Part shown: positions 4,751 through 52,266 of the stretch, piece after piece | Position numbering within the stretch: the first letter of the stretch is position 1 | Layout: the number at the start of each line of letters is the position of its first letter | From: Naegleria gruberi | Taxonomy: Eukaryota | Assembly (NCBI GenBank): GCA_000004985.1 | Contig: GG738845.1 | Strand: one strand, 5' to 3' | DNA length: 64,000 bases | Program-made: the position numbers and the translations under genes | The notes under the pieces: model-generated | What the model was told of the DNA's origin: nothing | Database searches by the model: none | The model's input: only the letters and a program-made list of their open reading frames with translations

Positions 4751-4911
4751 CAGAGAATTAATCCTTATTTGTTGGTGGGTGAGTAGTGGTGTTGTTTTTT
4801 TTGATTTATTTTTTGGCGCCTTCTATTATTAATCCACCGTTATGTTGAATTTTTAAAAATTAAAAAAAAAGGAACAATTGGATTTGTTCACAACAATCTC
4901 TTCGAACATGG

Positions 4912-9948: not shown

Positions 9949-12639
9949 TTAATTATTGGGATCATTTCTAGAATAAGTGCCATCAGAGAACCAAATTTCC
10001 TCACTTCCATTGTTATCAACAAACTTAATTGTTTTATCTGGAAAAACAACCTCCTTCTCTCCTCCAGGAAAATGAGTTTCAATTTGGTTATTAGAGAATT
10101 TGTACATTTCAGCACCTGTTGGATATGTAATTTGGGTTGTTTTTAAGTTATTGAAAAAGTAAATAACCAATCCATCCTCAAAGGTCTTTTTGATATCACC
10201 ATTATTGAAATAGATTAGACTAGATCTATCAGGTAATATTTTCTTAACACTTCCATTTGAAAACTCCACATCTCTTCTTCCTGTATTGAAAAGAATTTCA
10301 ATTTTTCCTTTCCCAACTTCTCTTCTACTGGTTACTACTTCTCCAAAATTTTCATTTTCCCATGTTACATTGAAATGACTATCGCTCACCTGGAAGGTTT
10401 TTTTTAATAGCCCAAGTTTGTGATTATTAGGATAAAGAGATTTAACTAAGGGTATCTTTTCCATTACTTTTGTTGACATGGTTTCTGGAAGAGGCTTGAT
10501 ATTCACATCCTTATTTGGTGTGATTGGTGTTTTAGGATTTTGTTGGGAATTGACCTTTGTATTGGTGGTAATGCTAGGACTTGAGTTAATAGATGGTTGA
10601 GAAATATTATCTTTTGATTGCTTTTTCCTAAAATTGTTATCGATTCTTTCTAATTCCCTCTTTTTAAGATTCTCCTCAAGCTCTATTATCTTTTCTTGTA
10701 ATTGTTCATTTCTTGATTTGAGAGCTTGGATATTTGATTTAAGTTTGGACCTTTCATTCTTAAATTCAGTAGTCAACTTTTCTATTTTTTCCTTAAGATC
10801 GTTGACTTCTTTCTCATGTTCTTTCCTACTCAGTGATTGTTGCTGATCTTTGATATTTCTTTCTAGAATTCTTCTTTCTCGTTTTAACTTTTGTGTTTCT
10901 TCCTGTTTATATTTTTCAAACTTTTCTCGTTCCTCTTCTGTAAATCGTTTAAACTCTGATTTTTCACATTCAATGTTTTGCCTTTCTGCTTGAAGCTCAT
11001 CTTTCAGTCTCCTAGTTTTTTCATTTTCATTCTTATAAAATATTAGTTGCTCTTCCAATTCTTGAAGTTTTAATTCTTCTTGCTCTTTCAGTTTTTTATC
11101 CTCTTTCTTTTTTTCAATCTTTTCCTTAATTTGTCTTTTCTTTTCTTCCTCTTGAGATTTTGGAAGAAAGAAGTTAGATATTATTGATCTACTATTTGAT
11201 ATTTTGGCTTTATGGGGGTCTTCATCATTTGGTGGTTGTTGGTTTGTTTTTTGACTTGTAATTGGTTTTTGCTCATAATTATAAGGATTATATACATTAT
11301 TACGATTAATAAAAGTTCCCCATCCTTCTTCGTCCTCTTGGTTGATTGAATCTTCTTCTAGGAACAGATCATTAGGAATAGATGGTTCGGAGAAGTAGGC
11401 TTTCAAAGTTTTTTCTTGTTTAGATTCTTGATTATTAATCACTTGTTGCTCCTTTGGTAAAGATTGAAGTGTTTTGACAACTTGTGGAGATTCAGTCTTT
11501 GTTGGTTTCTCTATCTTTTTCGTGTCTGGTTGTTTTTTAAGAGGTTCGTTCTTTCTTTGATTGGAAAGACTTGTTTTGAGAGGAACATCTTGTTTTTGTT
11601 CTGTTTTTTGAGCTGTATCCTGAGATTTGGATTTTAGGATTGCTTCCTTTGAATGTTTGTTTGTAGGAGGTACATATGTTCCTGGTTTTGAGATTTTGTT
11701 CAGCAAATTTCCCCATCTGGAATTCCTTTTCAACATTTTGAATTTTATGGAAGATTCCTCATCATCCTTATATTCATTTTCATAACTATTGGGGGAAGTG
11801 GTAGTAGATTTGGGAGAAGATTGCTTACTTTCTGATCTGTGGGGAATTGGAATTTCTTCAACGTTAGTAATTTTAGCACTGTTGAGACTTGATGTGTTAG
11901 GTTGATAAGTAGTGATTATTGACTGAGAAGACTCGTTTCCAGACTGATAGGATTGTTTAGATTTTGGTGTTAAGGTTTTTGGAATATACATGTGGAAAGA
12001 TCTTTGTTCCTTAGGTTTGGTTTCCTCTTCCTCAGAATCTGAATGTTCACCTTCTAGCTCCAAATGATTGAAAGAGGTATTTTCTTCGCCATCTGAATCA
12101 TTAGAGTCATTATTATAATAGTACGTCTCATAATCCTCTGGTTCTTGTAATTCTTCTAATGAGTTCTCGTTGTCATTATTAATAATATTATTAAAGTACT
12201 CATTATTTACAAAATTTGGAGTGTTATTTTCTGTTGTGTATCTGTATTCCTCATCCTCTTCACCCATATCATCATTTGTAATATCTTTTCCGATAGTTTC
12301 AGTGTTGTCAATAAAATTTTTGTATTCTTCCTCATCCTCTTCCTCATTTTCGTTCCATTCTGGGTGCATAGGCTGGAAATATTGTTGAATAGATGAAGTA
12401 AGGAAAGCATCTTTGAGTGTTGCCATTTTGTTTTCTTTTGTTGGATCCATTTTAAAAATAGAGTGGAATGTAGAATTTCGGCGGGAATCAACATTTGTAT
12501 CACAATTTTCAATTTCCTTTTCAACATTTTCAGCTTTATAAATGTCGCTTATTTCATTCATATTTGTTTCTTCTAAATATGTTGCAAATAATGTTTTATG
12601 TGATATTGTCTCCTCAGATGAAACAGGAAATGATGACAT
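9949..12639 (-). CDS. CPAP / SAS-4 (CENPJ)-like centriolar protein: acidic N-terminus, central coiled coil, C-terminal TCP10_C (G-box) repeats
   Basis: 896-aa uninterrupted ORF. The C-terminus carries the repeated G-box beta-hairpin motif ILFNTGRRDVEFSNGSVKKILPDRSSLIYFNNGDIKKTFEDGLVIYFFNN...ITYPTGAEMYKFSNNQIETHFPGGEKEVVFPDKTIKFVDNNGSEEIWFSDGT (compare CPAP ...YFPDGSIKHI...FPNGT...YADGS...FPDGT). It is preceded by a K/E-rich coiled coil. Confidence 0.75.
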   Translation of the reverse strand: MSSFPVSSEETISHKTLFATYLEETNMNEISDIYKAENVEKEIENCDTNVDSRRNSTFHSIFKMDPTKENKMATLKDAFLTSSIQQYFQPMHPEWNENEEEDEEEYKNFIDNTETIGKDITNDDMGEEDEEYRYTTENNTPNFVNNEYFNNIINNDNENSLEELQEPEDYETYYYNNDSNDSDGEENTSFNHLELEGEHSDSEEEETKPKEQRSFHMYIPKTLTPKSKQSYQSGNESSQSIITTYQPNTSSLNSAKITNVEEIPIPHRSESKQSSPKSTTTSPNSYENEYKDDEESSIKFKMLKRNSRWGNLLNKISKPGTYVPPTNKHSKEAILKSKSQDTAQKTEQKQDVPLKTSLSNQRKNEPLKKQPDTKKIEKPTKTESPQVVKTLQSLPKEQQVINNQESKQEKTLKAYFSEPSIPNDLFLEEDSINQEDEEGWGTFINRNNVYNPYNYEQKPITSQKTNQQPPNDEDPHKAKISNSRSIISNFFLPKSQEEEKKRQIKEKIEKKKEDKKLKEQEELKLQELEEQLIFYKNENEKTRRLKDELQAERQNIECEKSEFKRFTEEEREKFEKYKQEETQKLKRERRILERNIKDQQQSLSRKEHEKEVNDLKEKIEKLTTEFKNERSKLKSNIQALKSRNEQLQEKIIELEENLKKRELERIDNNFRKKQSKDNISQPSINSSPSITTNTKVNSQQNPKTPITPNKDVNIKPLPETMSTKVMEKIPLVKSLYPNNHKLGLLKKTFQVSDSHFNVTWENENFGEVVTSRREVGKGKIEILFNTGRRDVEFSNGSVKKILPDRSSLIYFNNGDIKKTFEDGLVIYFFNNLKTTQITYPTGAEMYKFSNNQIETHFPGGEKEVVFPDKTIKFVDNNGSEEIWFSDGTYSRNDPNN

Positions 12640-12756: not shown

Positions 12757-15220
12757 ATGACACAAAAACAGTCCAAGAACAAAGTTGTAGAGAAACTGAA
12801 GAAAAAAGGTTCCGGAGGAAACAAGAAGCAAGAGAACGTTAGCAGTGGAAATGAAGACCCACGTTTTGCTATTATGCATAAAGATCCAAAATTTTTACCT
12901 GTCGAAGCAAAAACAGTAATTAGTGATCCTAGATTATATGAAATCTTGGACCCTTCTTTTACAATGCTCAAGAAGAGCAGAGATGCCTCTGGTAAACAAA
13001 AAGAACAAGCTGTAAAAAACACATTAAAGGGTATTTACAACTTTGAAAAGGATCCGATGGCAATGAGAGTCGCAAAACTCAAACAAGCAAAAAAGGAAAT
13101 GGAAGAGGAAGAAGGAAAAGATCACGAGTCAGACTATGATAGTGACGATTCTATTGAAGATGCAAAGGAAATGATTGGAAAGAAAGATAAAAAGCCACTT
13201 ACAGCAACTGATATATTTGAAGGGGATGAATCTGAGGAAGAAGAAGAAGAAGAAATGGACTTTGATAAATTTTTGGAATCTTTGGAAGGTAGACCAGAAC
13301 TAGAAAATGTAGAGTGGAATGAGGAATGGGAAGATGCCTATGACTTTGATGATGAAGATGCAGCTGTTCTCAAGGCTGTAGGTCAAGAAGTTGATAGTGA
13401 AAATATTCCTGAGGAACAACAAGATTTATGGGACGTAAGTTTGATTTATTACTTAAATTTCTCATTATTTCAAAAGAAATATGTAGACGATCAAAAACAA
13501 ATTAAAATGATTGAAGAGGGCGAAGAAACTAGAAGAATTGCTGTAATGAACTGTGATTGGAATCTTGTTGATAGTGATGATTTATTTGTCCTCTTTTCTT
13601 CAATGTGTCCACCTTCTGGAAAGATAGTTGGTGTTACAGTTTATTTATCTGATTTTGGTAAGCAACAAAGGGAGAGTGAAGCTGTTAGTGGACCTGGAAA
13701 TTTGTTTTATGATGAAAATGATTACAGTAAGTTATTTGTTAACTCATTTATTAACAAAATTAGAAAATCTTGAAAATGTAAAGAAAAAGATTGCAGAGTT
13801 AAAGGAAGATAGTAGAAACTCCCGTCTTGTTTCAAGAAGAGAAAAAAAGAATAAGGATAATATTAAAGTTGAGACTGAAGTAGAACAAGCTGAAACCAAT
13901 GATGAAATGTTAGACCCTGTTAAAGTGAGAGAATATGAATTCAAAAAGATGAAATATTACTTTGCTGTTATTGAATGTGACAGCTCTCAAACAGCAACTT
14001 ATTTGTATAACGAGTGTGATGGGTTTGAATTTGAATCCACATCTATCTTGCTAGATTTAAGATTCATTCCAGACAGTTTAGACTTCAGTGAAAGAGAAAT
14101 CAAGTAAGTTTCAGAGATTGTGTAATATTCCTTACAGTTTTAAGATCTCAATGCACTTCAGTTCCAGCAGATTACAAACCAAAACAAAATATGTACTCCA
14201 AACCACTCAAATCATCATCTGTAGATTTGACTTGGGATACTAATAATCCAGAAAGAGAGGTATTGAAGAAAGACTTTAAAGATGTTAGCGAAGAAGCATT
14301 AATGTAAGTTTTATTGAAATAAGCATTTTTTACCATATTACTTACTGTATAGGAAATTTATTGCCAACTCAGATGATGACTCCAGTTCCTCATCAGATGA
14401 AGAAGTAGAAGAAAAAGTTGTAGAAGAAAATACTGATACAACTGAGGAAAAAACGCAAAAGAAGAAGGATAAAAAGGAAAAGAAGAAATTAGAAAAGAAA
14501 AAGTATAAGGATTTGATCAAGTATGCCAAAAAGAAAGAGAAGGAAAAGGAGGCTATTATGAGTGGCAATAGTGAGGATGCATCACACAATATTGAGTTTG
14601 TTTTACATGAAGGTTTAAAAGACACCATCCAAAAAGAAGTTGTAAACAAGCAAAAAGAAAAGGAAAAATTGGAAAATGAATCATGGTGGGAGACTGCAGA
14701 GAGAAAGAGAAAAGAAAAGAAAAAACAACAGAGAAAAGAAAGATTAAAGAAGATAATGAGTTCTGATCAAGATGGTGTTGAAGATGAGCAAGAGATTGAT
14801 GAAGATGATTTATTAGGAGAACAAAAATTGGCGGTAAGAGAAAAGGAGAAACAAAAACAAAAGAAGGAAGAGGAAGAAAAGCGAAAACAAAACTTGGAAT
14901 TATTAATGTCAGATTATAGTGCTGAAAAGGGATTTGATATTAAACGTGACACTGATAGAGAAATAACAAGAAGAAGAAAGAATCAAGAGTCCAAGAAAAA
15001 GAATGAGGAAAACGAAAATGAAGCTCCACTAATTATAGGAGATGACAGATTTACTGATGTCTTCCTTGATCCAGAATTCCATTTAGATCAAACTCACCCT
15101 AAGTACAAGAAAACTAATCTTACTTCCAAAATAATGGAAAAGAGAAGAGAGGAAAGTTTAAAGAGACAAGAAAAGGAAGAGTCACTTTATTCTTCAAAAT
15201 TGAAAAAGAGAAAATTATAA
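12757..15220 (+). CDS. ESF1: ESF1 (18S rRNA-processing factor, NUC153 domain) homolog; 5 exons
   Basis: Exons 12757-13434, 13477-13726, 13764-14103, 14145-14303, 14353-15220. Introns are 42 nt (in-frame, least certain), 37, 41 and 49 nt, all with GTAAGT donors and AG acceptors. The spliced product matches ESF1 across the introns: RIAVMNCDWNLVDSDDLFVLFSSMCPPSGKIVGVTVYLSDFGKQ..., VKVREYEFKKMKYYFAVIECDSSQTATYLYNECDGFEFESTSILLDLRFIPDSLDF..., ADYKPKQNMYSKP...DLTWDTNNPEREVLKKDFKDVSEEALMKFIANSDDDSSSSSDEE. Confidence 0.85.
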
Positions 15221-15222
15221 AC

Positions 15223-16638
15223 TCAATTATGTACAGTTGTTTCAACAGATTTACATGGTAAAAGTAGGCAATACTTTTCATCTTCAAAAATAATAGAAGC
15301 GAATGTTCCACTGGCAGCTCTAAAAAGTCTATCAAAAAGTGAGTCTGCATGTTCAATATCAACGTTCAATAAATTTGGAAGTAAAATAGCTTTAGCGTTT
15401 TCAATTTTTTCACAATCTCTCAAAACCTGAAACACCTTATTTCTAGCAATATTAATATCACTAGAAGGTGACAAATCAATGTAGTGCATACAATGAGAAC
15501 TTAAATGGTTGAGCTTTCCTCCAAAATCAACCAATATAGAATCTTCAATGGATACACGAGTTGTTTTTTCTGATGCAGCACAATTTACACTTGTTTGACT
15601 ATCCAAAATAAATGCAGGTACATATGGAGCATAATGAGTAATCAATTGACCAGGAGCAATTTGAGCAGTGTTATCATTCATTTTTACACTGTATGTTTGA
15701 TGACGAGCCTCCACTTTAACTTCAGGAATTGTACCACGAGTGTTGCTTTCTTCCAAAATAAATTCTTGTACACTCTTTTTTAATTGTTCAAGTGAAATTC
15801 CTCCTCTTCGTAACACTTCAATTTTTAATGACTTGTCTTCAAGTTCTGAAATTTTTGCCACTGTACTTTCAATACCAACACTACATTCTGTTTTACTTTC
15901 AGAATTATTTTCCTCTTCCAAAACAAGAATTCTGAATACGTTTTCATTATCAATTTCATCTTTTCCATATAATCCTAAATCCTCCATCACATGTGAAGCT
16001 CTTGTTGGAGAAATGTGACCAAATCTATTTGCTGATGGAGCACTGATTGGTAATTTGCAATGCTCTAATAATTTACGAATTATTGGATGAGCAGGAACTC
16101 TAATACCAACAAATCCTGTACTAGCGGTCACACAATCTGGTATTACTTGTTCATTAGATTTGCTGACAAGTGTGAGTGGACCCGGCCAGAAGGTTGCTGC
16201 CAAATGTTCATATAGCCTCATATGGAGACTATTCTCCTCAATGGTAATGTATTTTTTTGCTTGATCTACATCTAACACATGTACAATAACAGGATCGGTT
16301 AGCGGTCTTTTTTTTGCTTTGAAAATGGAATAAACAGCCTTTTCATCCAAAGCATTGGCCCCTAGTCCATAAACTGTCTCTGTTGGAAATGATACCAAAC
16401 CACCATTTCTCAAGTGTTCACTGCATTCCTCGTAAATATTAAAGTCATGTCCATTTCCAACTCTGTAGACAATTCCGTTATGAACATCCTCATAATATGA
16501 GGAGGTATCACTGTGTTGTTGATGAGTCATTTTTTTGAGTGTAGAGAATGAGAGTAAAAGTGGCCAAGTTCTGCTTGATGCAATTGCAAACTGCGTTTTT
16601 GAAAATGTATTAATTCTTTTTTTAAATATCGCTTTCAT
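15223..16638 (-). CDS. Sua5/YrdC-family threonylcarbamoyl-AMP synthase (t6A biosynthesis), with N-terminal extension
   Basis: YrdC core motif ...GGLVSFPTETVYGLGANALDEKAVYSIFKAKKRPLTDPVIVHV... plus a C-terminal Sua5-type domain. Its stop lies 2 bp from the ESF1 stop (convergent). Confidence 0.85.
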   Translation of the reverse strand: MKAIFKKRINTFSKTQFAIASSRTWPLLLSFSTLKKMTHQQHSDTSSYYEDVHNGIVYRVGNGHDFNIYEECSEHLRNGGLVSFPTETVYGLGANALDEKAVYSIFKAKKRPLTDPVIVHVLDVDQAKKYITIEENSLHMRLYEHLAATFWPGPLTLVSKSNEQVIPDCVTASTGFVGIRVPAHPIIRKLLEHCKLPISAPSANRFGHISPTRASHVMEDLGLYGKDEIDNENVFRILVLEEENNSESKTECSVGIESTVAKISELEDKSLKIEVLRRGGISLEQLKKSVQEFILEESNTRGTIPEVKVEARHQTYSVKMNDNTAQIAPGQLITHYAPYVPAFILDSQTSVNCAASEKTTRVSIEDSILVDFGGKLNHLSSHCMHYIDLSPSSDINIARNKVFQVLRDCEKIENAKAILLPNLLNVDIEHADSLFDRLFRAASGTFASIIFEDEKYCLLLPCKSVETTVHN

Positions 16639-16790
16639 TATCAGATACGAATTTAATAATAAATTGTTGCTGAATAAAATTAATATTATTTTAATTTGAA
16701 ATTGTTTGTTAATTATTGTGATGTTTACGAAAGGAGGTAAAAGTTTGTTGAAGTTTGGAAATTAGAAATTTTTTATGATTTTTAAAAAAA

Positions 16791-17930
16791 ATGTCAAGCA
16801 AAAAATACAATAGGTATATCGACAAGACTTCAATACCAGGTCACGAAGAAAAGGAGAAGAAGGTTAATCAAAAAATTGATGATGTGAAAGAAGCTTTGGA
16901 AAAAGATACTAGTGCTCCATCATGGTTAAAAGGAGGTGCTTACACTGAAGAGGATAATCCAAATGGTCTTGCTGATCGTTCCGATTTTGTTATTTTGTTT
17001 CCGGAATATAGAGAGCAATACTTGAAAGAGCATTTTACTGTAATAGAATCAACTTTGGGTGCATCACCATTTTACTTGAAAACAACACTGAATTGCAAGG
17101 AAGGAAAGATTATTATAGAAACCACAGAAAGAACATTTGATCCATTTATTATTTTCAAAGGTAGAGATTGCTTACAATTGGTTTCAAGAGGAGTGGCATT
17201 TGAAGAAGCTAAAAGAGTTCTTGAGGATAACGTTTTTTCTGAAGTAATGAAGATTGGAAATCTCTGTAGAAATAAGGAGGTTTTTACAAAGAGAAGACAG
17301 AGACTTTTTGGACCAGATGGTTCTACTTTGAAGGCTCTCCAACTTTTGACAGGTTGTTTCATATTTATTCAAGGTAAAACTGTTAGTGTTATTGGAGAAG
17401 TCAATGGAATCAAGCTCGTATCTGAGGTGATTACCGACTGCATGAATAATATCCATCCAATCTATCACATCAAACAGCTCATGGTTAAAAAGGAATTGAA
17501 AAACAGCTCTGAATATGCAAACGTATCATGGGATAAATATTTGCCAAAGTTTAAAAAGACTGTGAACAAGTCAATTGTCAAAAAAAAGAAAAAGAAAATT
17601 CAAAAGAAAGAATATACACCATTTCCAAACGCACCTGAAAAGAGTAAGAAGGATATTGAAATTGAAACTGGTGAATATTTCTTATCAAAAGAAGAAAAGC
17701 AACTTAAGCAAGTTTCTGAAAGAACTGAAAAACAAAAAGAAAAGAAGGAAGAAAAGAAGAAACAACAAGACAAGCTATATGAAGCTCCAAAAGAGGAAAA
17801 TCCAAAGAAGAGAAAGCACCAAAATGACGAAAATAATGATGATTTGATTAAGAAGATTTCTGAAAGACAATCAAATGTGACGACACAACAAAATAAGAAG
17901 GTTAAGGCTGAAGATTTTATAGATAATTAA
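16791..17930 (+). CDS. KRR1: KRR1 small-subunit processome component (KH domain)
   Basis: Collinear with KRR1: ILFPEYREQYLKEHF..., TFDPFIIFKGRDCLQLVSRGVAFEEAKRVLEDN..., RRQRLFGPDGSTLKALQLLTGCFIFIQGKTVSVIG..., NIHPIYHIKQLMVKKEL..., KKEYTPFP, followed by a lysine-rich tail. Confidence 0.9.
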   Translation: MSSKKYNRYIDKTSIPGHEEKEKKVNQKIDDVKEALEKDTSAPSWLKGGAYTEEDNPNGLADRSDFVILFPEYREQYLKEHFTVIESTLGASPFYLKTTLNCKEGKIIIETTERTFDPFIIFKGRDCLQLVSRGVAFEEAKRVLEDNVFSEVMKIGNLCRNKEVFTKRRQRLFGPDGSTLKALQLLTGCFIFIQGKTVSVIGEVNGIKLVSEVITDCMNNIHPIYHIKQLMVKKELKNSSEYANVSWDKYLPKFKKTVNKSIVKKKKKKIQKKEYTPFPNAPEKSKKDIEIETGEYFLSKEEKQLKQVSERTEKQKEKKEEKKKQQDKLYEAPKEENPKKRKHQNDENNDDLIKKISERQSNVTTQQNKKVKAEDFIDN

Positions 17931-17934
17931 ATTA

Positions 17935-19080
17935 TTACTGTCTTTTATCTAAATTTTCAAGTACTTGATTGACTTCTTTTGTTTGTTGATGATTTTCACC
18001 GAGAACGTAAACAAATATTTCTCTAGCCTTTTCCAGATATTCTCTAGCCTTAGCAAAGTCTCCCAAAAATAATTTGAAAAACCCGTTTACAACATACACT
18101 TTCCCTGTTTCCACATGATTTTCTCCAAGATGTTCTGAATCTGTTCTCAAAATATGTTCTAACATTTTTTCAGCATCTCCAACTTTGTCTTCATCTAAAT
18201 CCTTTACAGAATTTTTAAATTGAATTCTCGCTTGTCTTGTTGAAACTTCAAGTGAACCATCCTCATTATCATTTGTTTGGGGTTTACCAACTAAAATAAT
18301 TGACGACAATTGGTCATACCAAATATCAACAACTTTTTTCATAAATGAAACACCTTTTTCAGATTTTCCTTGCATTGAAACAAATACATTGCCTAAATTG
18401 AAATAAGCAAAACTTGTAATTACATCATGAGTTCCATGCTCTAAAGCTAAATAATATACACTTGCTGCCATATTTTCAATGGCTTCATTAACCTTTCCTT
18501 GCTGAACATACAGTAAACCAAAATGTTGATGAAGTTCAGCTCTCAAGTTTGGTGGGCATTTTTCCTTGTTTTTCATACAGGTCCAATTTGCTATAGACAA
18601 ATATTCCTCTGCTTGTTTGAATTGATTTAATTGTTGGCTTGCCTTGGAAAGGAGGAAGTATGCTTCAACTTGTTGCAAAGCATCTTTTCCATACAGTTTT
18701 TGAATATATTCCAAAGCTTTTAAACCTCCGATAGTAGCCCTCTTAAAATCGCCCTCCTGCAAAATCATTGAACTCTCACTTAAGGCAACCTCGATAATCG
18801 CTTCCAAACTTAATTCAAGTTGTTTCATATGTTCTTGTTTTTGAGTTAGAGATGTTCCAGTAAAAGTTCCTTGTTGAGGAGAATTGAATTGAGTAATTAG
18901 GTTATTAAATTTTTGCTCTAATTGAATCCAGTTTAACCCTGATCGTTTATCCCTTCCTGTTGTTGTTGCTCCGTAACTTCCATTATCATTACTATTCAAT
19001 AATTGCTGGTTAGAGTTATTTCCTTCTGTCAGCCTGCTCAAATCGAGCGTTCCAATTTTCAGTGAAGGACTTGTAGACAT
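17935..19080 (-). CDS. TPR-like helical-repeat protein (381 aa), family unknown
   Basis: Uninterrupted ORF with repeated amphipathic helix pairs (AYFLLSKASQQLNQFKQAEEYLSIANW..., HFGLLYVQQGKVNEAIENMAASVYYLALEHG..., YFNLGNVFVSMQGKSEKGVSFMKK..., GKVYVVNGFFKLFLGDFAKAREYLEKAREIF). Its stop is 4 bp from the KRR1 stop. Confidence 0.65.
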   Translation of the reverse strand: MSTSPSLKIGTLDLSRLTEGNNSNQQLLNSNDNGSYGATTTGRDKRSGLNWIQLEQKFNNLITQFNSPQQGTFTGTSLTQKQEHMKQLELSLEAIIEVALSESSMILQEGDFKRATIGGLKALEYIQKLYGKDALQQVEAYFLLSKASQQLNQFKQAEEYLSIANWTCMKNKEKCPPNLRAELHQHFGLLYVQQGKVNEAIENMAASVYYLALEHGTHDVITSFAYFNLGNVFVSMQGKSEKGVSFMKKVVDIWYDQLSSIILVGKPQTNDNEDGSLEVSTRQARIQFKNSVKDLDEDKVGDAEKMLEHILRTDSEHLGENHVETGKVYVVNGFFKLFLGDFAKAREYLEKAREIFVYVLGENHQQTKEVNQVLENLDKRQ

Positions 19081-19130
19081 TTTTTTAAGTTATTTATTTT
19101 TATGGCGGGAAAGTCTGCTGTAGATCATTC

Positions 19131-20500
19131 TCAATTATCAAAGTCACGGAATCGAGATAGAATTTTTGGTGCTACAATAGCCCAAAAGAATAATAAAAGG
19201 CAAATCCATTGCGAAACAATCTTTACCCACATTGCTGCAAGTGAATGATCGACTGACCATTTCTCTTCATCATTTGAGAGTACATCCCAATTTACTAATA
19301 CGCAGCTCATATAACAACAGGAAAACATACAAACAAGATGGCAATAAAACATTTCTGAACATTCGGATCGTTTCGCTTCATCAGTTTCGTCGTTTTCATC
19401 ATTATCATTTTCCGTTCCATCTTCGTCACTATGTTTGCTCATACTGAAAAAACTTGAAAAGCTCAAACCAGTGCTAATAGCACTTCGTCTAGAGTTTTTA
19501 AGGTTAATTAATTAGTGAGTATTACATCATACTTACACAATGGAAAATATTGAGATCAAGAGACTGATAATTATAGTAATAATTGAGCTAGCGGTAGTAT
19601 TAGATCCTCCTTCCTGAGAAAAGCTAGCCAATTTGTTACAGGTCTGGTTTGGATAAGATGTCAAAGCTGTCCAACATACAAAAGATGTATACAGAAATAT
19701 TAAGCCTGTTGGATAAATACCTCTTTTTAGAACCATTGCCACAATTGTTGTAATTATTGAACAAACTATTGTAAAGCAAATGAAAAATCTATTCAAATGA
19801 CAATCAGGGCCACTACCAAAAAAAACAAATTCACATACTATAAATGCCAATCCAAGAATATAGAAAACTATTGCTAAACCAAGCATTAAATAATCCCATA
19901 CCCCATATGATGAATCATCACCTTTGGATCTGAACCATTCTGCTGAGCTAAAGGAAAAGTCAATTAAAATTATTAGTTGAATTATGATAAAAATACATGC
20001 TAAAACTAGAGACAACCATGCAAATCCATAGAAAAAGATATCTGTCATATGGATATAAGTAAATATGATAGATCTATTAACGTACCAGGTATGAAGAATG
20101 GAACAATTAGAAACACAATAAATAATGGAAGCTTGAGAATAAACCATTTGTGCTGAATATATAATCTTGCATTGTCTCCCACACAAAATAATCTTGATGC
20201 TAAAAAAGCAAACAAGAAGAAAAACATGAAACAACCGAAACATATCCTATAAACAGCATAATTACCACTTATTCTCACCAATACACTTTCAAAAAACCAT
20301 TCATAAATCTGCCTTCCAAAAGGTACATTATCAAAAAATCCAAACAATCCTTCTCTCAAAAACAGTGCAACAATAAATCCAAAAAATAAGAAGAAAGAGT
20401 ATGCTACCCGAGTGGCTGTCAGTTTTTTAGGTTTTAATTTTTTCAATTTTCCTCTCCAACCTTGCTCCTCCCCATAATCAAGATCCGAGTAGATGGCCAT
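19131..20500 (-). CDS. serine incorporator (SERINC/TMS1) family multipass membrane protein; 3 exons
   Basis: Exons 20086-20500, 19537-20041, 19131-19488. Introns are 20042-20085 (44 nt, GTACGT...ACAG) and 19489-19536 (48 nt, GTAAGT...TCTAG). The product matches SERINC throughout: NYAVYRICFGCFMFFFLFAF..., IIQLIILIDFSFSSAEWF...SSYGVWDYLMLGLAIVFYILGLAFIV..., and the C-terminus AAMWVKIVSQWICLLLFFWAIVAPKILSRFRDF (compare human [33 protein letters not shown]). Confidence 0.85.
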
Positions 20501-20583
20501 CTATTCAATTCTTCGATTTTTTTCTAATTGGCTTCTAGTAAAACTTTAAACGTTTAATATCATAAAAAATATTTTTAAAAAAA

Positions 20584-22501
20584 ATGCTTCCTAGTGCCTC
20601 CAACAGTAACCTCACTCCAGGAAATTCACTGGATACCAATAAATCTATGAACGCTCTCAAGTCGTTAAAAGAGTACATATTGGATATGGTGGAAAGCGTT
20701 AATGGAGTAAAGGTATTAATTCTAGATGAATATACTGTAGGTTTAATAATTTAATGATTAATACAACATAATAATAAGAGAGACGTTGTTTCTGTTGTAA
20801 CACCTTTTAGTATGATTATGCAAAAGGAAGTTTTTCTTGTAGATCTGTTGAGTAATCACACCAGACAGAAATTATCAAACATGCGTGCTATTGTTTTTAT
20901 CCGACCAACAAAGGATAATGCCTATCTTTTAAAAGAGGAACTCTCCGATCCTAAATATCAATCCTACAATGTTTGTAAGTTTTGATCGATAAGATTCACC
21001 TAACTCTAACTTAGTTTTCTCCAATGTTGTTGATGAAGAAATTCTTCATAGATTTGCGGAAATAGATAAGAATGAAATGGTTAAAAGCGTATTTGAATAT
21101 TTTACTGAATATTTGGCTCTAGATAACTCGATTTTTTCGTTGAATATGCCTAAAACTTTTAAAATGATGACCAGCCGTTCAGAAACATCTGACACACTTG
21201 TTCCAAAGCTAACTGATGGATTGACAAGTGTTTTGTTATCTCTTAGGAAAAGACCAATTGTAAGATATCAAAAGAATTCTATTCCTTGTAAATTATTAGC
21301 TCAAAATTTGAGTGAAAGAATTTCTGGAAGAGACAAATCAATGAAGGGTATTTTCGATTTTAAAATGGATTATGAAACCAGATATCATACTAAAGCACCT
21401 CCAGCACCTATTTTATTGATTTTGGACAGAAGAGATGATGCTATCACACCACTTTTAACACAATGGACTTACCAAGCAATGATTCATGAACTCATTGGGC
21501 TTAATAACAATGTAATCAAATATCCATCTGATGAAAAAAGAGAAGAAGTCTTTACGGCCCAATATGATGAATTCTTTTCTCAGAATATGTATGAAAATTG
21601 GGGAGATTTATGTAAAAATGTAAAAAAAATTGTTGATAGATACCAACAGAATCATGACATGAAAGAAAATATTCAATCTATTGAAGATTTAGCTAACTTT
21701 ATGAAAAACTTCCCAATATTTAAAAAACAACAACAAGAAGTAGAAAAACACATTACAATGGTAACTGAACTTCGTTCCATTGTTTCCAGACGTAAATTAC
21801 TTGATGTATCAGAAGTTGAGCAAGAGCTGGTTTGTGGTCAAACACATGACAATATTTTTGAAGAATTGAAAAAGATTATCAAGAATGAAAATACTCTTAA
21901 ACTAGATGCCCTCAGACTTGTAATTATTTATTCATTAAGATATGAAGATAGAAAGTCTGAACTCAAACTTCTGAAGGAGTTGCTTGAGGATAAAGGTGTA
22001 GAAGAAACTTGGTTGGTGGATGGAGCAATAAGATTTGGAGGTAAATCAGCACGTACTCCTGGCCTTTTCGACGAACAACCAAAATCTCTTTCAATAACTT
22101 CATTATTTAAGAAAGTGGCAAGTGAATTCCAGGATAAGGAAGTCTCCAATGTATTTACCCAACACAAACCAAGACTTTATGAAACTTTGGAATTTTTATT
22201 TAAAGGAAAATTAGATACTGAGAAATATCCATTTATCAGTGATACTTCAAAGGACATACCACAAGAGGTGATAGTATTTATTGTCGGTGGCATTACTTAT
22301 GAGGAAGCTTCAGCTGTAGAATTGTTCAACAGTAAGGCTAGAAGAGAGGCTGAAGAAAGCGCCAAACTGAAAGCTAACTTTGGTGTTATTAGCTCATTGA
22401 ATCAAATTGACGATAATTTCAAGTCTGTAATTTTGGGTGGCACCAGTGTTTTAAACTCAAAATCATTCCTAAGAGAACTTGAAAATATTGATGGACATTA
22501 A
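20584..22501 (+). CDS. VPS45: Vps45 (Sec1/Munc18-family SNARE regulator); 3 exons
   Basis: Exons 20584-20736, 20779-20974, 21015-22501. The first intron (42 nt, GTAGGT...TAAG) contains an in-frame TAA. The second (40 nt, GTAAGT...TTAG) is phase 1. The product is collinear with VPS45: MNALKSLKEYILDMVESVNGVKVLILDEYT / RDVVSVVTPFSMIMQKEVFL...AIVFIRPTKDNAYLLKEELSDPKYQSYNVF / FSNVV...ILLILDRRDDAITPLLTQWTYQAMIHELIG...FIVGGITYEEA. It is only 83 bp from the SERINC start (divergent). Confidence 0.85.
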
Positions 22502-22553
22502 TTATTAAAATTGAAATTATTATTCCTTTACAAAAAAAGAAAAATATTAAAAA

Positions 22554-22964
22554 ATGAATCAAACCAAACGAATTGCTCTGTCTAAAACATCGCCATCTAT
22601 CCGCAACGGAATAATCATGTTCAAGAGATGCACTAATAAACAATCCAGAGAGTTTACAGTTGATATGTGCAATAGAGAAAAATCGGAAAAACAAAACGAA
22701 CAAGCAAAATCCCAGGAGGATGAAAATTTGGAATTTATTATTGAACAAGCATATATTAAAAAGAAGGTGGAACAAGCTGCTCTCAGCTCTCAAGTAAAAA
22801 TTGCTTTAGAAAAGGCCAAAGCAAAGCAAAGAAGAAAAGCCCATTTGGTTGTTGCCTTTGGATTATTTTCTGCTGTTGCAATTACATTGTTTGTTTTTTA
22901 TATTCACCAAACAAGATCACACTCTGGAGTGTTAACAGAAACAACAAAAGATAGAAAATTTTAA
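22554..22964 (+). CDS. small tail-anchored membrane protein (136 aa), unknown family
   Basis: ORF with a basic/acidic coiled segment and a single C-terminal TM helix (HLVVAFGLFSAVAITLFVFYIH). Its stop codon overlaps the stop codon of the convergent Thg1-like gene by 4 nt. Confidence 0.45.
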   Translation: MNQTKRIALSKTSPSIRNGIIMFKRCTNKQSREFTVDMCNREKSEKQNEQAKSQEDENLEFIIEQAYIKKKVEQAALSSQVKIALEKAKAKQRRKAHLVVAFGLFSAVAITLFVFYIHQTRSHSGVLTETTKDRKF

Positions 22965-23950
22965 TTTTTTGGATATTCTTTTGAAAAGACANNNNNNNNN
23001 NNNNNNNNNNNNNNNNNNNNNNNNNNNNNNNNNNNNNNNNNACCCTTTTCCTGTTCTACCATTTCAACAATTTTGCTAGCTGACAAGAAATTCATCTCAT
23101 TCTGTGCATAAAATTTACTTCCTAGTGTAGTCTTACTATTTCTAATACAGTCAATTTGTCTCCAAATCATATAATCAATAGCATGAGATATTGTTGGTAA
23201 TTGATAAATTCTACAATCAAAATTACCAAATATATCTCCATCCAATAATTTTTGACGAACAAGTCTTCTTTTTTCAAAATCTTCAGTTTGATAAGATTTC
23301 TTTGAAATATTAGAATTATGCATGTCATATTCCAATCTACTTTCAAAGCTATCTGCATTTGCTCGTAATAGTTTCCTCAAATAATAATTAAAAGTTATGG
23401 TCAGAAAACTTGTTGAAATGCTAACTAATTTTTGAGCACGACCTCTGTAAATTCCATTTGGCACTTTTTGTTTTTCGTTATTACTTGTTTGCCCTGAGAA
23501 CAATAATGTTAATTCATCTGAACAGTTGTAAATCAATGTTGGATTCATACTCAAATTTTTAAGACACAAGTCTCTCACTGCAAGAAGAAGAGCCCAATGA
23601 ATATTAGCATCAAAAGGCTTTTCGAAAATGTCTCCATTAGTTGTAAAAGATTTAAAATGAAAGCCATCAAAACGCATAACGATTGGTTGTTGGTCTGCAA
23701 TATCAAAGTTAACCTTGCTATCATATTGTCCTTCAAATAGTTTCATTCTAGCAACCACTTCATCAAAATTTTGATTAACAGCCTCCATTCTTTCGTGTAC
23801 AATCTTGTCATTTGTGTTGTTGGTTTTATGAAAGCAACGGAAAGAGAAAGAAGGTATTGTGCCATAGAATTTTCTTCCTTTGCTCATGATGGAAGAACAG
23901 AACAATTTGTGTTGAAGCATTTTTTTGAGATGCTTCTTACTTTCAATCAA
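22961..23950 (-). CDS. tRNA-His guanylyltransferase (Thg1)-like 3'-5' nucleotidyltransferase with about 90-aa N-terminal extension; spans assembly gap
   Basis: Thg1 core: PIVMRFDGFHFKSFTT...FEKPFDANIHWALLLAVRDLCLKNLSMNPTLIYNCSDELTLLFS (compare [32 protein letters not shown]...IAYGQSDEYSFVF) and DYMIWRQIDCIRNSKTTLGSKFYAQ (compare DYLSWRQADCHINNLYNT). The C-terminal about 35 residues are interrupted by the N-gap at 22991-23041. Confidence 0.8.
   Translation of the reverse strand: MIESKKHLKKMLQHKLFCSSIMSKGRKFYGTIPSFSFRCFHKTNNTNDKIVHERMEAVNQNFDEVVARMKLFEGQYDSKVNFDIADQQPIVMRFDGFHFKSFTTNGDIFEKPFDANIHWALLLAVRDLCLKNLSMNPTLIYNCSDELTLLFSGQTSNNEKQKVPNGIYRGRAQKLVSISTSFLTITFNYYLRKLLRANADSFESRLEYDMHNSNISKKSYQTEDFEKRRLVRQKLLDGDIFGNFDCRIYQLPTISHAIDYMIWRQIDCIRNSKTTLGSKFYAQNEMNFLSASKIVEMVEQEKGXXXXXXXXXXXXXXXXXVFSKEYPKN
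22991..23041. other. assembly gap (51 N)
   Basis: Run of N inside the C-terminal coding region of the Thg1-like gene. Confidence 0.99.
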
Positions 23951-27634: not shown

Positions 27635-30600
27635 TTAGACAACATTTGGTGAATTTGGTGAATTAGGTGAGCTTAGTCTAATTAAATTTGCTTTAGAATT
27701 CTTTCTGTGGGATGCATAGAATAAAAAATCAATATCTGGGTCACTTCTTGGTGACTCAGTTCCAGAATTGTTTGGAGAATCATCATCAATGTTCAAGTCA
27801 AGTTTTGACATTGAACCTATACTAAGGGAGCTCATTGCAAAGTCTTCAAATCTTATTTTGGAATGTAATTCTTGGTGGATATTGTAAACATAACCTTTAG
27901 CCCTTCTCTTTCTCTTAATGATTATTACTGTTGCAACAATTACTATTACAATAACAAAAACAATCGAGAATCTTCTGGTATTTGAGGCTCAGTAAGAGAA
28001 CAATTGCTTCCATAATAAGGTGATTCACAAATACATTGGTTTGGGGAGACACATTTTCCATGTCCATTACAAACAGCTATATTGGCGGATTCAACTTCAA
28101 AACAAACAGGAATTTCACATTGAGAGCCTGTAAATTCAGTTTGATTACATTTACATGTATTAGGGCTCTCACAAATTCCTTTTCCATTACAAACTGTTGG
28201 ATCAGTGCTAAATTTTTGATAACAAATAGAAAGTTCACAATCTTGACCGGAATAGCCATTTGTACAAACGCACTTATCTGGTGAAACACAATTTCCTCTT
28301 GAGTGACAAACGTTTGGATCGTTGTTTGTTTAGTTAAAGCAAACAGGATATTGACAATGGGTACCACTATACCCATTATTACAAGTACAATCGTCAATGT
28401 TTTGGCAATAACCATTACCGTTGCACATTTTTGAGGTTTCATTAGAAAGAATTGAGTAACATGAGAAAAGCTCACAATTAGGGTTTGAGTATCCCAATTG
28501 GCAATCACATCTATCAAGTGCTGAACAGTTTCCTTGGCCATTACAAACTGATGTCAACTCTGATCTTACACCAAAACATGAATGAGTTTCACAATTTTGG
28601 TCAAAGTATCCAATTCCACACTCACAATGGTTAGGAGATTTACAAATTCCATTTCCACTACAGACTGTACTTTCATTAGAAGGAATTCCAAAACAAATAG
28701 GAATTGAGCAAGTGGTCCCAGTAAAACCTTGAACACATTCACAAACATCAGGAGCAATACAAACTCCATAATTGCAAATAGATGGATCCTTGGAACCATA
28801 ACAAATTGATAGGTTGCAATATTGTCCAAAATAGCCAGCACTACAGAAGCAAGAATCAGGAGAAACACAAGATCCATGACAACTACAGACATTTGGTGAA
28901 TTAAACAATTCTGAATAACATGAGTATTCATCACACTTGGAGCCGTTATACCCAAGAGAGCATTTACAAACATCCAAAGAAGTACATTCACCTAATCCAC
29001 TGCAAACAAGTGAGTTGTTAGATAATAAGGAGAAACAATAAGGTAAATCACATTTTTCACCATAATAATCACTATTACAAGAACAATTATTGAGAGAATC
29101 ACAAGAACCATGTCCACTACAAACCAAAGAAGAATTGGACGTGATTCCAAAACATGTACCAACTTCCGCTACAAACATTAGAATGATTTGATTCCGAAAC
29201 ATGAAGTGATGGAACAGTCCCATCCATAATAGCCATCATTACAAACACATTTATCAATTTGGGAGCAAGTACCATTCAAGAAATTACAAACACTGGGATC
29301 ACTGTTAGCAACTCCAAAGCATGAGTGATTTTGGCAATTAGTACCACTATAACCATAAGAACAATCACATAAGTTTGGTCCTAAACAACTGCCCTTTCCA
29401 CTGCAAACATAGGAAGAATTTGAAATAATCCCACTACAATAGGTCAAATTACAAGAACTACTAAACCATTCGCTGTGGCAGGTACAAGAATCATAATTAA
29501 AACAGTCTCCATTTCCACTACAAACAGATACGCTGGTAGAGTTAGTACTATAACATGTAGTTTGATTGGCAAGAACAAGTATTCAGAGCTAGGCATGAAC
29601 CTTTGCCGCTGCATACATCAACAGAGATACTTGTACGACCAAAACATGTTGTAATATTACAGTTTGAACCAAAATATCCAGTGTCACACGTGCAAGAGGC
29701 ATTGCTATTGCATTGCCCTTTCCCATTACAAACTTTTGTATCATTAGAATTAACTCCAAAACATGAAGTAACATTACAATCCAAGCCGAAATAATTAGGT
29801 TTACAACTACAAGTATTTGGATAAGTGCAGTTTCCATTCGAACTGCAAACATGGGCACTATTTGAGTTAATATTAAAGCAAATTGGATATTGACACTCTT
29901 GACCTGTATACCCGCTCAAACATGAGCAGGTATTTGGTCCAATACAAGATCCGTGACCATTACAAGCCCGTGAATCGTTAGAGGGAATTGAAAAGCATTT
30001 GGGATATTGACATTGATCCCCTGTGTATTGTAATTGACAAGAACAAGTATTATTCCCAATACAGGTACCATTCTGATAATTACAGACAGCTGACTCATTG
30101 TACATTTTCCCATAACAAATAGGAATACTACAATCAAAACCTGCCCAATTACCGTAGCATTGACAAAAATCTGGATTTGCGCAATATCCATTACCACTAC
30201 ACACCTTGCTATTTGTGCTTAAAGTTCCAAAGCAGATAGGATCGTTACAATCGGATCCATTATATCCGTATGTTGTATTACAAATACATGTATCCTGTTG
30301 AATGCAATTTCCTCTACCAGAGCAAACATTATCATCACTGAAATTTCTTCCGCTACATTCAAAATAACATTCAATAAGGAAAGTACTCCCTGCAGCAACA
30401 TCAATAATAACGCCTCTTGTAATTTGCTTTTCTTCCAGAGAAACTCTAGTAAATGTTAATAATTCAGGTGATTTTACCTCATAGCTTAGAATCATTGTTT
30501 GTTGGAATTTGAAGAGCATAATTATCACCAAATCCCAACACCTTTCCATCTCTTGTAAGTAGGAGTGTGAGATCAGCAGCTGATGCCTTAATAATAAAGT

Positions 30601-32376: not shown

Positions 32377-32416
32377 TGACTAGCAAACAAAAAAGCACAA
32401 CAACAAAAAAATCGGG

Positions 32417-34897: not shown

Positions 34898-34947
34898 AAA
34901 TTGAGTAACAATATTTAAAAAAATTTGTTATTAATTAAAACAAAAAA

Positions 34948-36207: not shown

Positions 36208-36255
36208 ATCAGGGGCTAATACAAACGAATTTGGCGCCATTTCAAAAACAAAAAA

Positions 36256-43694: not shown

Positions 43695-43708
43695 ATTATA
43701 ATATTTAC

Positions 43709-52252: not shown

Positions 52253-52266
52253 TTTTTATTATCAAT

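Follow-up and report, generated by a model that had tools for sequence, protein, structure and literature searches.

Near position 15220 of this 64-kb stretch of DNA (all of which was analysed and is called the window here), an ESF1-like gene and a Sua5 gene run towards each other and stop two bases apart, which raises the question of whether a eukaryotic genome can really be packed so tightly, what permits it and how typical it is. By the evidence of its sequence, the window is Naegleria gruberi nuclear DNA, because the products of several ORFs match N. gruberi proteins at 100% identity: that of DNA polymerase alpha over 100% coverage, and, as exact full-length matches to official models, NAEGRDRAFT_29002 (TPR), NAEGRDRAFT_56417 (Spt20), a 20S proteasome subunit and NAEGRDRAFT_61113 (BSD-domain), with N. 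fowleri orthologues reaching only 67–81% identity. The window is AT-rich (26–36% G+C along its length, beside a reference range of 33–35% and a published 35% for the species) and its introns are short spliceosomal ones of 35–60 nt whose donors read GTAAGT or GTATGT. An independent ENA metagenome contig, L001, reproduces 16235–21530 at 99.89% identity. N. gruberi, an amoeboflagellate, is free-living; its 41-Mb genome holds more than 15,000 genes, and the coding fraction published for the whole genome is 57.8%; the gene density of Naegleria has been noted as prokaryote-like (PMC9465069).

Gene ends and the spacers between them

Spacers and poly(A) hexamers were counted from a table of 30 genes in the 64-kb window. 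The sequence-only reading had named ESF1, Sua5, KRR1, TPR, Thg1-like, LRR-RBR, Pol alpha, CC2D2A/CEP76-like and RCC1 genes, and these identities all hold. The features discussed are the following.

9949–12639, minus strand: CPAP/SAS-4-like gene, Tcp10_C repeats up to residue 888 of 896
12757–15220, plus strand: ESF1-like gene, splice model of five exons with short GTAAGT introns, NUC153 domain in the last exon
15186–15191, minus strand: AATAAA, candidate Sua5 poly(A) signal, 32 nt beyond the Sua5 stop and within the ESF1 coding sequence
15223–16638, minus strand: Sua5 (threonylcarbamoyl-AMP synthase) gene, Pfam Sua5_yciO_yrdC and Sua5_C
16791–17930, plus strand: KRR1 gene, 379 aa, Pfam KH_KRR1 domains
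17935–19080, minus strand: TPR-repeat gene NAEGRDRAFT_29002, 381 aa, exact official protein, TPR Pfam matches to residue 365
19131–20500, minus strand: Serinc-like multi-exon gene, from ORFs and Serinc Pfam on the called genes of L001
20584–22501, plus strand: Vps45/Sec1-family gene, splice model of three exons, Sec1 profile matched to 575/575
22554–22964, plus strand: predicted tail-anchored protein, 136 aa, ORF with good codon score and A-rich start context
22961–23920, minus strand: Thg1-like gene, Thg1 Pfam, 3' end read across an assembly gap
32379–32453, no strand: claimed divergent spacer, beside a minus-strand exon that has no ATG and begins at about 32376–32379 after a 3' splice site
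41235–43694, plus strand: Spt20-like gene NAEGRDRAFT_56417, 819 aa, exact official protein, Pfam Spt20_SEP
43709–44332, minus strand: 207-aa gene, ORF with a codon score of 0.25 per codon and A-rich start context
45839–50651, plus strand: CC2D2A/CEP76-like ciliary gene, four exons, ~1563 aa, CEP76 peptidase-like and CEP76_C domains
50629–52252, minus strand: RCC1-repeat gene, five exons, ~434 aa, from sequence, ORFs and a splice model
52267–53587, minus strand: TIM50/NIF-phosphatase-like gene, NIF Pfam, AATAAA covering the stop
58998–61823, plus strand: LRR and RING-IBR-RING E3 ligase gene, 941 aa, Pfam IBR, LRR_6 and zf-C3HC4
61848–64000, minus strand: DNA polymerase alpha catalytic subunit, 3' part, 100% identity and coverage to N. 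gruberi, zf-DNA_Pol to 186/186

The ESF1/Sua5 junction stands as described: ESF1 ends on the plus strand with TAA at 15218–15220, the Sua5 TGA occupies 15223–15225 on the minus strand, and Sua5 can be aligned with its orthologues from N. fowleri and N. lovaniensis down to its own final residue. Equally firm are the 4 bp between KRR1 and the TPR gene (17930/17935), a junction that is identical in contig L001 and at which KRR1 reaches 379 aa, as against 381 aa in human KRR1, and the 24 bp between LRR-RBR and Pol alpha (61823/61848), where the zf-DNA_Pol profile ends at residue 702 of 709. Across the window, domains of Pol alpha, Vps45 (whose Sec1 profile ends 7 residues before the stop), acyl-CoA dehydrogenase and CPAP reach 5–8 residues from the stop codon. 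In the official annotation, KRR1 (305 aa) and Sua5 (380 aa) appear as partial proteins.

Two convergent distances needed small corrections. Between the Spt20-like gene and the 207-aa gene, for which no family match was found, 14 bp separate the stops, the 15 bp given earlier being the coordinate difference 43694/43709. The overlap of the CC2D2A-like and RCC1 genes, put at about 25 nt, holds as an overlap of coding sequences and measures 23 nt, the RCC1 TGA at 50629–50631 lying that far inside the CC2D2A-like gene, whose plus-strand stop is at 50649–50651. Most of the 150 family representatives listed align to residues 519–532 of the 532-residue CC2D2A-like query and end a few residues from their own C-termini; this end is thus validated by family homology, and the putative minus-strand end by ORF and splice logic only. 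The RCC1 gene has a low codon score and only distant RCC1 homologues (best 36% identity), with no N. gruberi protein and no counterpart among 5.8 billion protein clusters; its ATG at 52252 is only 14 bp from the TIM50-like stop.

Two of the eleven claimed distances are unsound. A 4-nt overlap of the tail-anchored and Thg1-like genes (22964/22961) is present in the ORFs, but the Thg1-like frame crosses a run of 50 N at 22992–23041, only 28 bp from 22961 and translated as a run of X, and its stop is a candidate one; the tail-anchored ORF is without a family match, and an exact look-up in the public protein set was negative. The divergent spacer of 40–76 bp at 32376/32417–32453 has to be given up: position 32376 is GTG, which is no start codon and comes immediately behind a 3' splice site of the polypyrimidine-TAG type, and the minus-strand frame has its first ATG at 32103. 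The arginase-family gene on the plus strand most likely starts at 32453, and a head-to-head overlap of coding sequences at 32453–32484 is conceivable.

The other divergent distances survive, one of them conditionally. The 117 bp between CPAP and ESF1 (12639/12757) have AAAAAAATG context at both starts, the 83 bp between the Serinc-like gene and Vps45 (20500/20584) are confirmed, and the 161 bp of the pair 4750/4912 hold as first ATGs of ORFs, with the usual start context at neither. For Sua5 and KRR1 (16638/16791), the claimed 152 bp apply if Sua5 starts at 16638, in weak context, and become 260 bp if it starts at 16530, in the strong context AAAAAAATG.

Over the whole table, the intergenic share of the window is 4.6% (~95% genic), spacers have a median of 68 bp, and coding sequences overlap once, by 23 nt. 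Spacer length follows orientation, with medians of 14 bp for convergent, 52 bp for tandem and 138 bp for divergent pairs (Kruskal-Wallis p = 0.0009), the usual order in compact genomes. Convergent spacers lie between −23 and 24 bp in five of nine pairs; among the eleven tandem spacers, five measure 48–52 bp and one 14 bp. Both this dependence on orientation and the gene ends, which the stop codons of homology-supported genes fix, speak for more than chance.

Formation of 3' ends and probable antisense overlap

A direct RNA sequencing study (PMC11529991, Genome Res 2024) gives N. gruberi a median 3' UTR of 39 nt, falling to 22 nt where AAUAAA overlaps the stop codon. There, AAUAAA is the poly(A) signal, is overlapped by ~11–13% of stops and is scarce in coding sequence, and individual poly(A) sites are assigned to genes. 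Ultrashort 3' UTRs come from that paper, and dual-use stops and scarcity of AATAAA in sense are common to it and the window; in the passages considered, we found nothing on neighbouring genes, on abutting or overlapping convergent coding sequences, or on poly(A) signals within a neighbour's coding sequence. High gene density in Naegleria and ultrashort UTRs with dual-use stops are already published.

In the window, poly(A) hexamers overlap stop codons in 9 of 30 genes (AATAAA in six, ATTAAA in three more), including KRR1, where ATTAAA at 17926–17931 covers the stop, the Spt20-like gene, with AATAAA at 43690–43695, and the TIM50-like gene. Candidate signals sit at stop codons or within the coding sequence of the neighbour. 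The hexamer at 15186–15191 is an example of the latter, reading TTTATT in ESF1 sense within Leu-Tyr-Ser codons, and a poly(A) function for it is suggested by AAUAAA being the published N. gruberi signal. The gene bodies, 59.5 kb in all, contain 11 copies of AATAAA in sense against 80.6 expected, a roughly seven-fold depletion, and 99 in antisense against 65.8 expected. For nine genes, ESF1, TPR, CC2D2A-like and RCC1 among them, a canonical A[AT]TAAA is absent up to 60 nt from the stop; these may rely on variant signals or end deeper inside the neighbouring gene.

With 3' UTRs this short, 3' end formation would take almost no dedicated DNA, and tail-to-tail genes could for that reason abut or overlap. 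The AAUAAA would often be built into the stop codon or follow it directly, and would otherwise lie a few tens of bases on, antisense to codons of the neighbour. It is strongly avoided in the sense but not the antisense strand of gene bodies, so that a neighbour's signal could sit inside a gene without truncating the host mRNA. Mature convergent mRNAs would then overlap in antisense by roughly 20–80 nt. The earlier claim that the 3' UTRs of convergent pairs must overlap is therefore well founded: given the published median of 39 nt and convergent spacers that range from −23 to 24 bp, antisense overlap is almost unavoidable and very probably occurs. Coordinates, gene identities, C-terminal homology, motif positions and strand asymmetry are direct results for the window; the cleavage sites, transcription start sites and promoter extents of its genes are those we infer from such comparisons. 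The reading preferred here, with a probability of about 85%, is that the packing is the normal, very gene-dense architecture of N. gruberi, enabled by 3' ends that need almost no DNA.

How typical the packing is

The figure of ~95% genic against 57.8% coding genome-wide, together with the tighter spacing than in sister species, counts against the view that the window is normal for the genome. At four loci, annotated N. fowleri and N. lovaniensis spacers are ~3–5 times larger: Sua5 is convergent there with another gene at 41 and 32 bp, and the proteasome gene with its neighbour at 76 bp. As short convergent distances in sister species, these values also count in favour of the preferred reading. 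There is thus an appreciable, though lesser, chance that the window is a locally hyper-compact island, or that the published annotation under-calls genes and the whole genome is denser. The RCC1 gene without a counterpart, the 136-aa tail-anchored ORF without an exact match and the partial annotation of KRR1 and Sua5 point the same way; against this, the basis is one 64-kb window and four sister-species loci, whose annotations are possibly incomplete themselves.

The sequence-only reading likened the compaction to that of nucleomorphs or microsporidia-related lineages. Numerically the density fits, with a median spacer below ~100 bp and an occasional overlap, as a likeness of density only; N. 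gruberi itself is free-living and has no reduced genome. Microsporidia and the nucleomorphs of cryptomonads and chlorarachniophytes likewise have spacers of tens of bp, occasional overlaps of coding sequences and transcripts running into neighbouring genes, the last being predicted for the window. Williams and colleagues (PNAS 2005) are said to have described such overlapping transcription in compacted genomes, namely those of the microsporidia Encephalitozoon and Antonospora and of nucleomorphs. Those organisms, however, are parasites or endosymbionts with genomes of 0.4–3 Mb, short genes and few introns, whereas N. gruberi combines 41 Mb and more than 15,000 genes with numerous short introns, genes for cilia and large multi-domain proteins. 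That the window belongs to the reduced genome of a parasite or endosymbiont, with its minimal gene set, was rejected, given the species, the cilium and centriole genes (CC2D2A/CEP76-like, CPAP) and the large multi-domain genes. It is doubtful, but conceivable, that the gene-rich parts of N. gruberi as a whole are packed to that degree, being ~95% genic, with a convergent median of ~14 bp, genuine overlaps of coding sequences, routine antisense-encoded poly(A) signals and obligatory mRNA overlap at most convergent pairs; if so, the public annotation would under-call genes substantially, as for the RCC1 gene here, and Naegleria would present extreme packing without genome reduction.

Other compact genomes offer partial parallels. 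Giardia and other diplomonads share with Naegleria dual-use stop codons, 3' UTRs of 10–40 nt and A/T-rich sequence directly upstream of the ATG, but use a WGURAA signal without known auxiliary elements, whereas the Naegleria signal is AAUAAA, accompanied by UGUA and U-rich auxiliary elements. In budding yeast, one to a few hundred bp separate convergent genes, and it is the UTRs of their transcripts that overlap. Yeast resembles the window in having many convergent pairs with partly complementary mRNAs (PMC3900390), but at the convergent spacings of −23 to 24 bp found here, UTRs must enter coding sequence.

Possible antisense pairing, promoters and same-strand neighbours

Convergent mRNAs might pair into short double-stranded RNA that couples the expression of neighbours, for example via RNAi machinery, and every Naegleria species studied is reported to have RNAi components (PMC9928731). 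Such functional overlap is nevertheless improbable even with overlaps predicted at most convergent pairs: in N. fowleri and N. lovaniensis, Sua5 and the proteasome gene converge with other genes, a lack of conservation that speaks against regulation specific to a pair, and the partners are unrelated in function.

At the 5' side, A occupies positions −6 to −1 in 24–28 of 28 starts, and nearly all genes begin at an ATG after a run of six or seven A. Each promoter contained in a spacer appears to add ~50–70 bp, which suggests that promoters are very small and 5' UTRs very short. The earlier proposal, that promoters have to work in both directions or sit inside adjacent genes, need not hold for divergent pairs, because their spacers of 83–260 bp may have room for two small core promoters; the case is stronger for same-strand pairs, with stop-to-ATG distances of 14–68 bp. 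These same-strand pairs were absent from the earlier list; one of them is the Serinc-like stop 50 bp upstream of the TPR ATG.

Co-transcription of same-strand neighbours ~50 bp apart as operon-like polycistrons, without individual promoters, would suit the little room that the short tandem spacers leave for a 3' UTR and a promoter, and the placement of Naegleria in Discoba, the group of the polycistronic kinetoplastids. It is nonetheless very unlikely. Same-strand runs in the window are 1–5 genes long and the strand switches every 1–4 genes, most upstream genes of tandem pairs have their own AATAAA at or near the stop, and E2F-like GC boxes 24–37 nt upstream of three ATGs in tiny tandem spacers suggest individual promoters. 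Naegleria is not known to use spliced-leader trans-splicing, which also counts against polycistrons. Heterolobosea are reported to have ~2 genes per same-strand run on average, without long runs (bioRxiv 10.64898/2026.07.29.740908), and the individual poly(A) sites per gene in PMC11529991 speak against co-transcription as well. Polycistronic units of the Euglenozoa type were likewise rejected for the window, most of its genes having a poly(A) hexamer and an A-run start.

Least credible of all is that miscalled stops and starts (unrecognised terminal introns, wrong frames) hide true spacers of several hundred bp: the frame across 50 N at 22961, the missing ATG at 32376, the possible Sua5 start at 16530 and the larger gaps that the partial official KRR1 and Sua5 models leave in the public annotation lend it something, but the C-termini of Sua5, CC2D2A-like, Pol alpha, Vps45, CPAP, acyl-CoA dehydrogenase and KRR1 are those of their families or orthologues, the TPR, Spt20, proteasome and BSD models are identical to official ones, the strand asymmetry of AATAAA agrees with the gene table throughout, and the independent ENA assembly concurs.

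The preferred reading, of a normally gene-dense genome whose 3' ends need almost no DNA, is a practical warning to annotators: in Naegleria, a gene finder that rules out overlapping genes or assumes UTRs of normal length would truncate or miss genes, and the window has cases of both, KRR1 and Sua5 being partial in the annotation and one RCC1 gene missing from the public protein set. It also gives an example of how genes may lie nearly end to end in a eukaryote that is free-living and keeps a full gene complement, with poly(A) signals merged with the stop codon or placed antisense within a neighbour. If the density of the window holds genome-wide, extreme compaction would need no genome reduction.

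Gene spacing and orientation

The gene table for the window, built from ORFs, a splice-aware model and Pfam, holds 30 genes and, with spacers taken from CDS to CDS, leaves an intergenic share of 4.6%. Spacer length depends on orientation (Kruskal-Wallis p = 0.0009), a pattern that fits spacers needing room for zero, one or two small promoters.

Spacers between neighbouring coding sequences, by orientation (bp)
Convergent (tail to tail): -23, -4, 2, 4, 14, 24, 58, 73, 79; median 14
Tandem (same strand): 14, 48, 50, 50, 50, 52, 64, 68, 134, 239, 261; median 52
Divergent (head to head): 73 (tentative), 83, 89, 117, 138, 161, 231, 260, 480; median 138

The gene names proposed from the sequence alone agree with Pfam (NUC153, Sua5, KRR1 KH domains, TPR, Thg1, Spt20, IBR/LRR, DNA_pol_B), and most of the distances claimed between convergent stops hold.

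Convergent pairs, with stop positions
ESF1 / Sua5: 15220 / 15223, spacer 2 bp
KRR1 / TPR: 17930 / 17935, spacer 4 bp
Spt20 / 207-aa gene: 43694 / 43709, spacer 14 bp
LRR-RBR / Pol alpha: 61823 / 61848, spacer 24 bp
CC2D2A-like / RCC1: 50651 / 50629, CDS overlap 23 nt
Tail-anchored ORF / Thg1-like: 22964 / 22961, apparent overlap 4 nt, frame read through a 50-N gap

The headline distance of 2 bp is borne out by a TAA at 15218-15220 facing an opposite-strand TGA at 15223-15225, and the 4 bp of KRR1/TPR and 24 bp of LRR-RBR/Pol alpha are upheld by the stop positions. The close spacing of Spt20 and its neighbour stands, but measures 14 rather than 15 bp, and the overlap of the CC2D2A-like and RCC1 reading frames measures 23 rather than about 25 nt. 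The 4-nt overlap at 22961/22964 holds for the ORFs as such, but the Thg1-like frame passes through a 50-N scaffold gap ending 28 bp from the stop, and its C-terminus there is only putative; this pair is weak.

Same-strand pairs, missing from the sequence-only reading, are equally extreme, and the regularity of their 48-52 bp spacers hints at a minimal module of 3' end plus promoter.

Short same-strand spacers, stop to next ATG
19081-19130, 22502-22553, 34898-34947, 36208-36255 and 58948-58997: 48-52 bp (n = 5)
52253-52266: 14 bp

Searches of the window yielded no tRNAs and no Rfam matches, and ncRNA genes were rejected as the content of its larger spacers.

Stop codons and 3' ends

Unrecognised terminal introns, which would make the apparent stops wrong, are opposed by homology. 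Sua5 and its orthologues in N. fowleri and N. lovaniensis (471, 476 and 474 aa) align right to the C-terminal end, and KRR1 has 379 aa against 381 in human, with an alignment reaching residue 370. For the last exon of the CC2D2A-like gene (532 query residues), the alignments of most of the best 150 family representatives extend to residues 519-532 and stop at most a few residues short of the representatives' own C-termini; the CEP76_C profile match reaches position 136 of 140. The Pol alpha zinc-finger profile is matched over 186/186 positions, with the stop 7 residues further on, and near-complete C-terminal matches were also obtained for Vps45 (Sec1, 575/575), the acyl-CoA dehydrogenase (149/150) and CPAP (Tcp10_C, to residue 888 of 896). 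The ESF1 C-terminus had no match in the PDB.

Among the convergent-pair ends assessed, only the stop of the RCC1-repeat gene (50629-52252, -) is without homology support; it was placed on the basis of the single open frame that follows the last acceptor and encodes the RCC1 motif GRNDFGQLSLGD. This five-exon gene has no identical or close protein, and none from N. gruberi, among 5.8 billion protein clusters, where the best match is 36% identical. It is apparently absent from the public N. gruberi proteome and, because its codon score is low, is possibly a young gene or a pseudogene.

Direct RNA sequencing of N. gruberi (PMC11529991) has shown that 3' UTRs have a median length of 39 nt and that AAUAAA serves as the poly(A) signal, with UGUA upstream and U-rich elements downstream as auxiliaries; coding sequence as a whole contains no more than some 1200 AAUAAA hexamers. 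Of the stop codons, 11-13% overlap AAUAAA, and the UTRs of those genes have a median of 22 nt. The window follows the same poly(A) grammar. A canonical hexamer lies between -4 and +61 of the stop in 17 of the 30 genes; AATAAA spans the stop itself in six genes and ATTAAA in three more, these dual-use stops including those of KRR1, Spt20, the TIM50-like gene and four tandem upstream genes. Two genes with no canonical hexamer (43706-43711, -, and 58945-58955, +) share the stop context TAAGTAAATA, in which an AGTAAA overlapping the stop may be a variant dual-use signal.

Within 59.5 kb of gene bodies, AATAAA occurs 11 times in sense against 80.6 expected from triplet shuffles, and 99 times in antisense against 65.8 expected. 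This strand asymmetry serves as an independent test of the strand and extent assigned to genes. Because the hexamer is scarce on the sense strand and not on the antisense strand, a neighbour's signal can lie within an opposite-strand gene and leave that gene unharmed. The first AATAAA of Sua5, for example, is at 15186-15191, 32 nt beyond its stop, where the ESF1 codons read CTT TAT TCT. From the published UTR lengths and the positions of the poly(A) signals, we infer an mRNA overlap of some tens of nucleotides where paired genes are 2-24 bp apart, and the proposal that convergent pairs have overlapping 3' ends appears sound in the light of the spacers and those lengths. Among Logan RNA-seq contigs, none carried the window proteins.

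Start codons and promoters

Gene starts share a near-invariant A-run context, AAAAAAATG, with A at -6 to -1 in 24-28 of 28 starts. Among the 2348 ATGs in the window, only 48 are preceded by six or more A's in -7 to -1, a set that takes in 20 of the 28 gene starts. The context favours starts at 16530 (Sua5), 32453 (arginase-family gene) and 23920 (Thg1-like gene).

Examples of starts in the A-run context
12757, 16791, 20584, 24152, 41235, 55384

Judged in this way, the divergent distances claimed from the sequence alone are of uneven quality. Both starts of the 117-bp pair (12639/12757) are solid by context, and for the 83-bp pair 20584 is solid by context and 20500 is the sole ATG of its ORF. 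The 161-bp distance (4750/4912) is correct for the first ATGs of the ORFs, but the A-run is missing at both, and the 152 bp of 16638/16791 applies if Sua5 starts at 16638 and becomes 260 bp if it starts at the strong-context 16530. Sua5 may use both of these in-frame ATGs, of which 16638 has a weak context. In the longer form the N-terminus is extended by a basic stretch, possibly a mitochondrial presequence, and the two ATGs (16530-16638, -) could yield dual-localised isoforms through leaky scanning, an arrangement described for yeast SUA5.

The distance of 40-76 bp (32376/32417-32453) did not survive: 32376 is a GTG, and just before it a polypyrimidine tract ends in TAG, which makes a good 3' splice site; the first ATG of its frame, at 32103, lies within an RCC1 blade. 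The arginase-family gene (+) very probably starts at 32453. Opposite to it, no start codon is present in the first visible exon of the large RCC1-EGF gene (-), and a strong 3' splice site (32380-32383) marks the beginning of that exon. A single candidate first exon was found; with an ATG at 32484, it would run head to head into the initial 32 nt of the arginase-family gene. Along 27635-32379 (-), ORFs carry RCC1 blades and then many teneurin-type EGF repeats; they are probably parts of a single very large gene, not of two, and their poor codon score is due to the cysteine-rich repeats.

The A-run context and the tandem spacers of about 50 bp imply that 5' UTRs are very short and promoters very small. 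Strictly bidirectional promoters, suggested by the sequence-only reading, are not demanded by divergent spacers of 83-260 bp. Polycistronic transcription of the window genes is unlikely, as same-strand runs here are short, genes have individual poly(A) hexamers and Heterolobosea have a reported average of about 2 genes per same-strand run (bioRxiv 10.64898/2026.07.29.740908).

An E2F-like GC box, TTSSCGCC, occurs seven times in the window against 0.4 expected, a count reached in 0 of 100 shuffles. Each of the four spacer copies has an ATG no more than about 100 nt away, and three sit 24-37 nt upstream of one; the box is a possible compact promoter element.

TTSSCGCC copies
In tiny intergenic spacers: 4813-4820 (within the 161-bp divergent spacer), 19104-19111, 36231-36238, 44385-44392
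Inside CDS: 12480, 35126, 44241

Species identity and packing across Naegleria

Along its full length, the Pol alpha C-terminal ORF (61851-63977, -) shows 100% identity to the N. gruberi DNA polymerase alpha catalytic subunit, whose gene sits on a 1.56-Mb contig, compared with 81% for N. fowleri and 66% for Willaertia magna. Together with four exact full-length matches to official N. gruberi proteins, this identifies the window as N. gruberi nuclear DNA.

Window ORFs matching official N. gruberi proteins exactly over their full length
TPR protein NAEGRDRAFT_29002
Spt20-like protein NAEGRDRAFT_56417
20S proteasome beta subunit
NAEGRDRAFT_61113

This species identity rules out that the window comes from a ciliate, a microsporidian or a nucleomorph. 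G+C is 26-36% across the whole window, long ORFs use the standard genetic code, and introns are 35-60 nt with GTAAGT or GTATGT donors; the three N runs are at 551-600, 22992-23041 and 39886-40286. An independent contig of ENA ERZ929261, labelled metagenome, matches 16235-21530 at 99.89% identity (5 substitutions) and reproduces the 4-bp KRR1/TPR junction and the 50-bp TPR/Serinc and 83-bp Serinc/Vps45 spacers. It also carries one extra C at window position 18081, either a strain variant or an assembly error, which would shorten the TPR gene to 343 aa.

In the sister species, Sua5 faces a cytochrome-b5 gene tail to tail, 41 bp away in N. fowleri and 32 bp in N. lovaniensis, and the proteasome gene has a different convergent neighbour, 76 bp away; at the Sua5, Pol alpha and proteasome loci of both species the neighbours differ from those in the window. 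Tight tail-to-tail packing is therefore genus-wide, and its partners are not conserved, which counts against pair-specific function. Spacers in the annotated N. fowleri and N. lovaniensis loci are nevertheless 3-5 times larger than in the window, and the coding fraction published for N. gruberi stands at 57.8% (PMC9928731 Table 1). Part of the gap between the window and the published density is under-annotation: the public N. gruberi protein set lists KRR1 and Sua5 only as 'partial' and lacks the RCC1 gene.

The packing claimed from the sequence alone is thus real and mostly accurate, except for the start at 32376 and the end at 22961 across the N gap. High Naegleria gene density is already on record, N. 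fowleri contigs having been mistaken for prokaryotic because of it (PMC9465069), and the packing belongs to the recognised traits of a sequenced model organism; it is not a new system.
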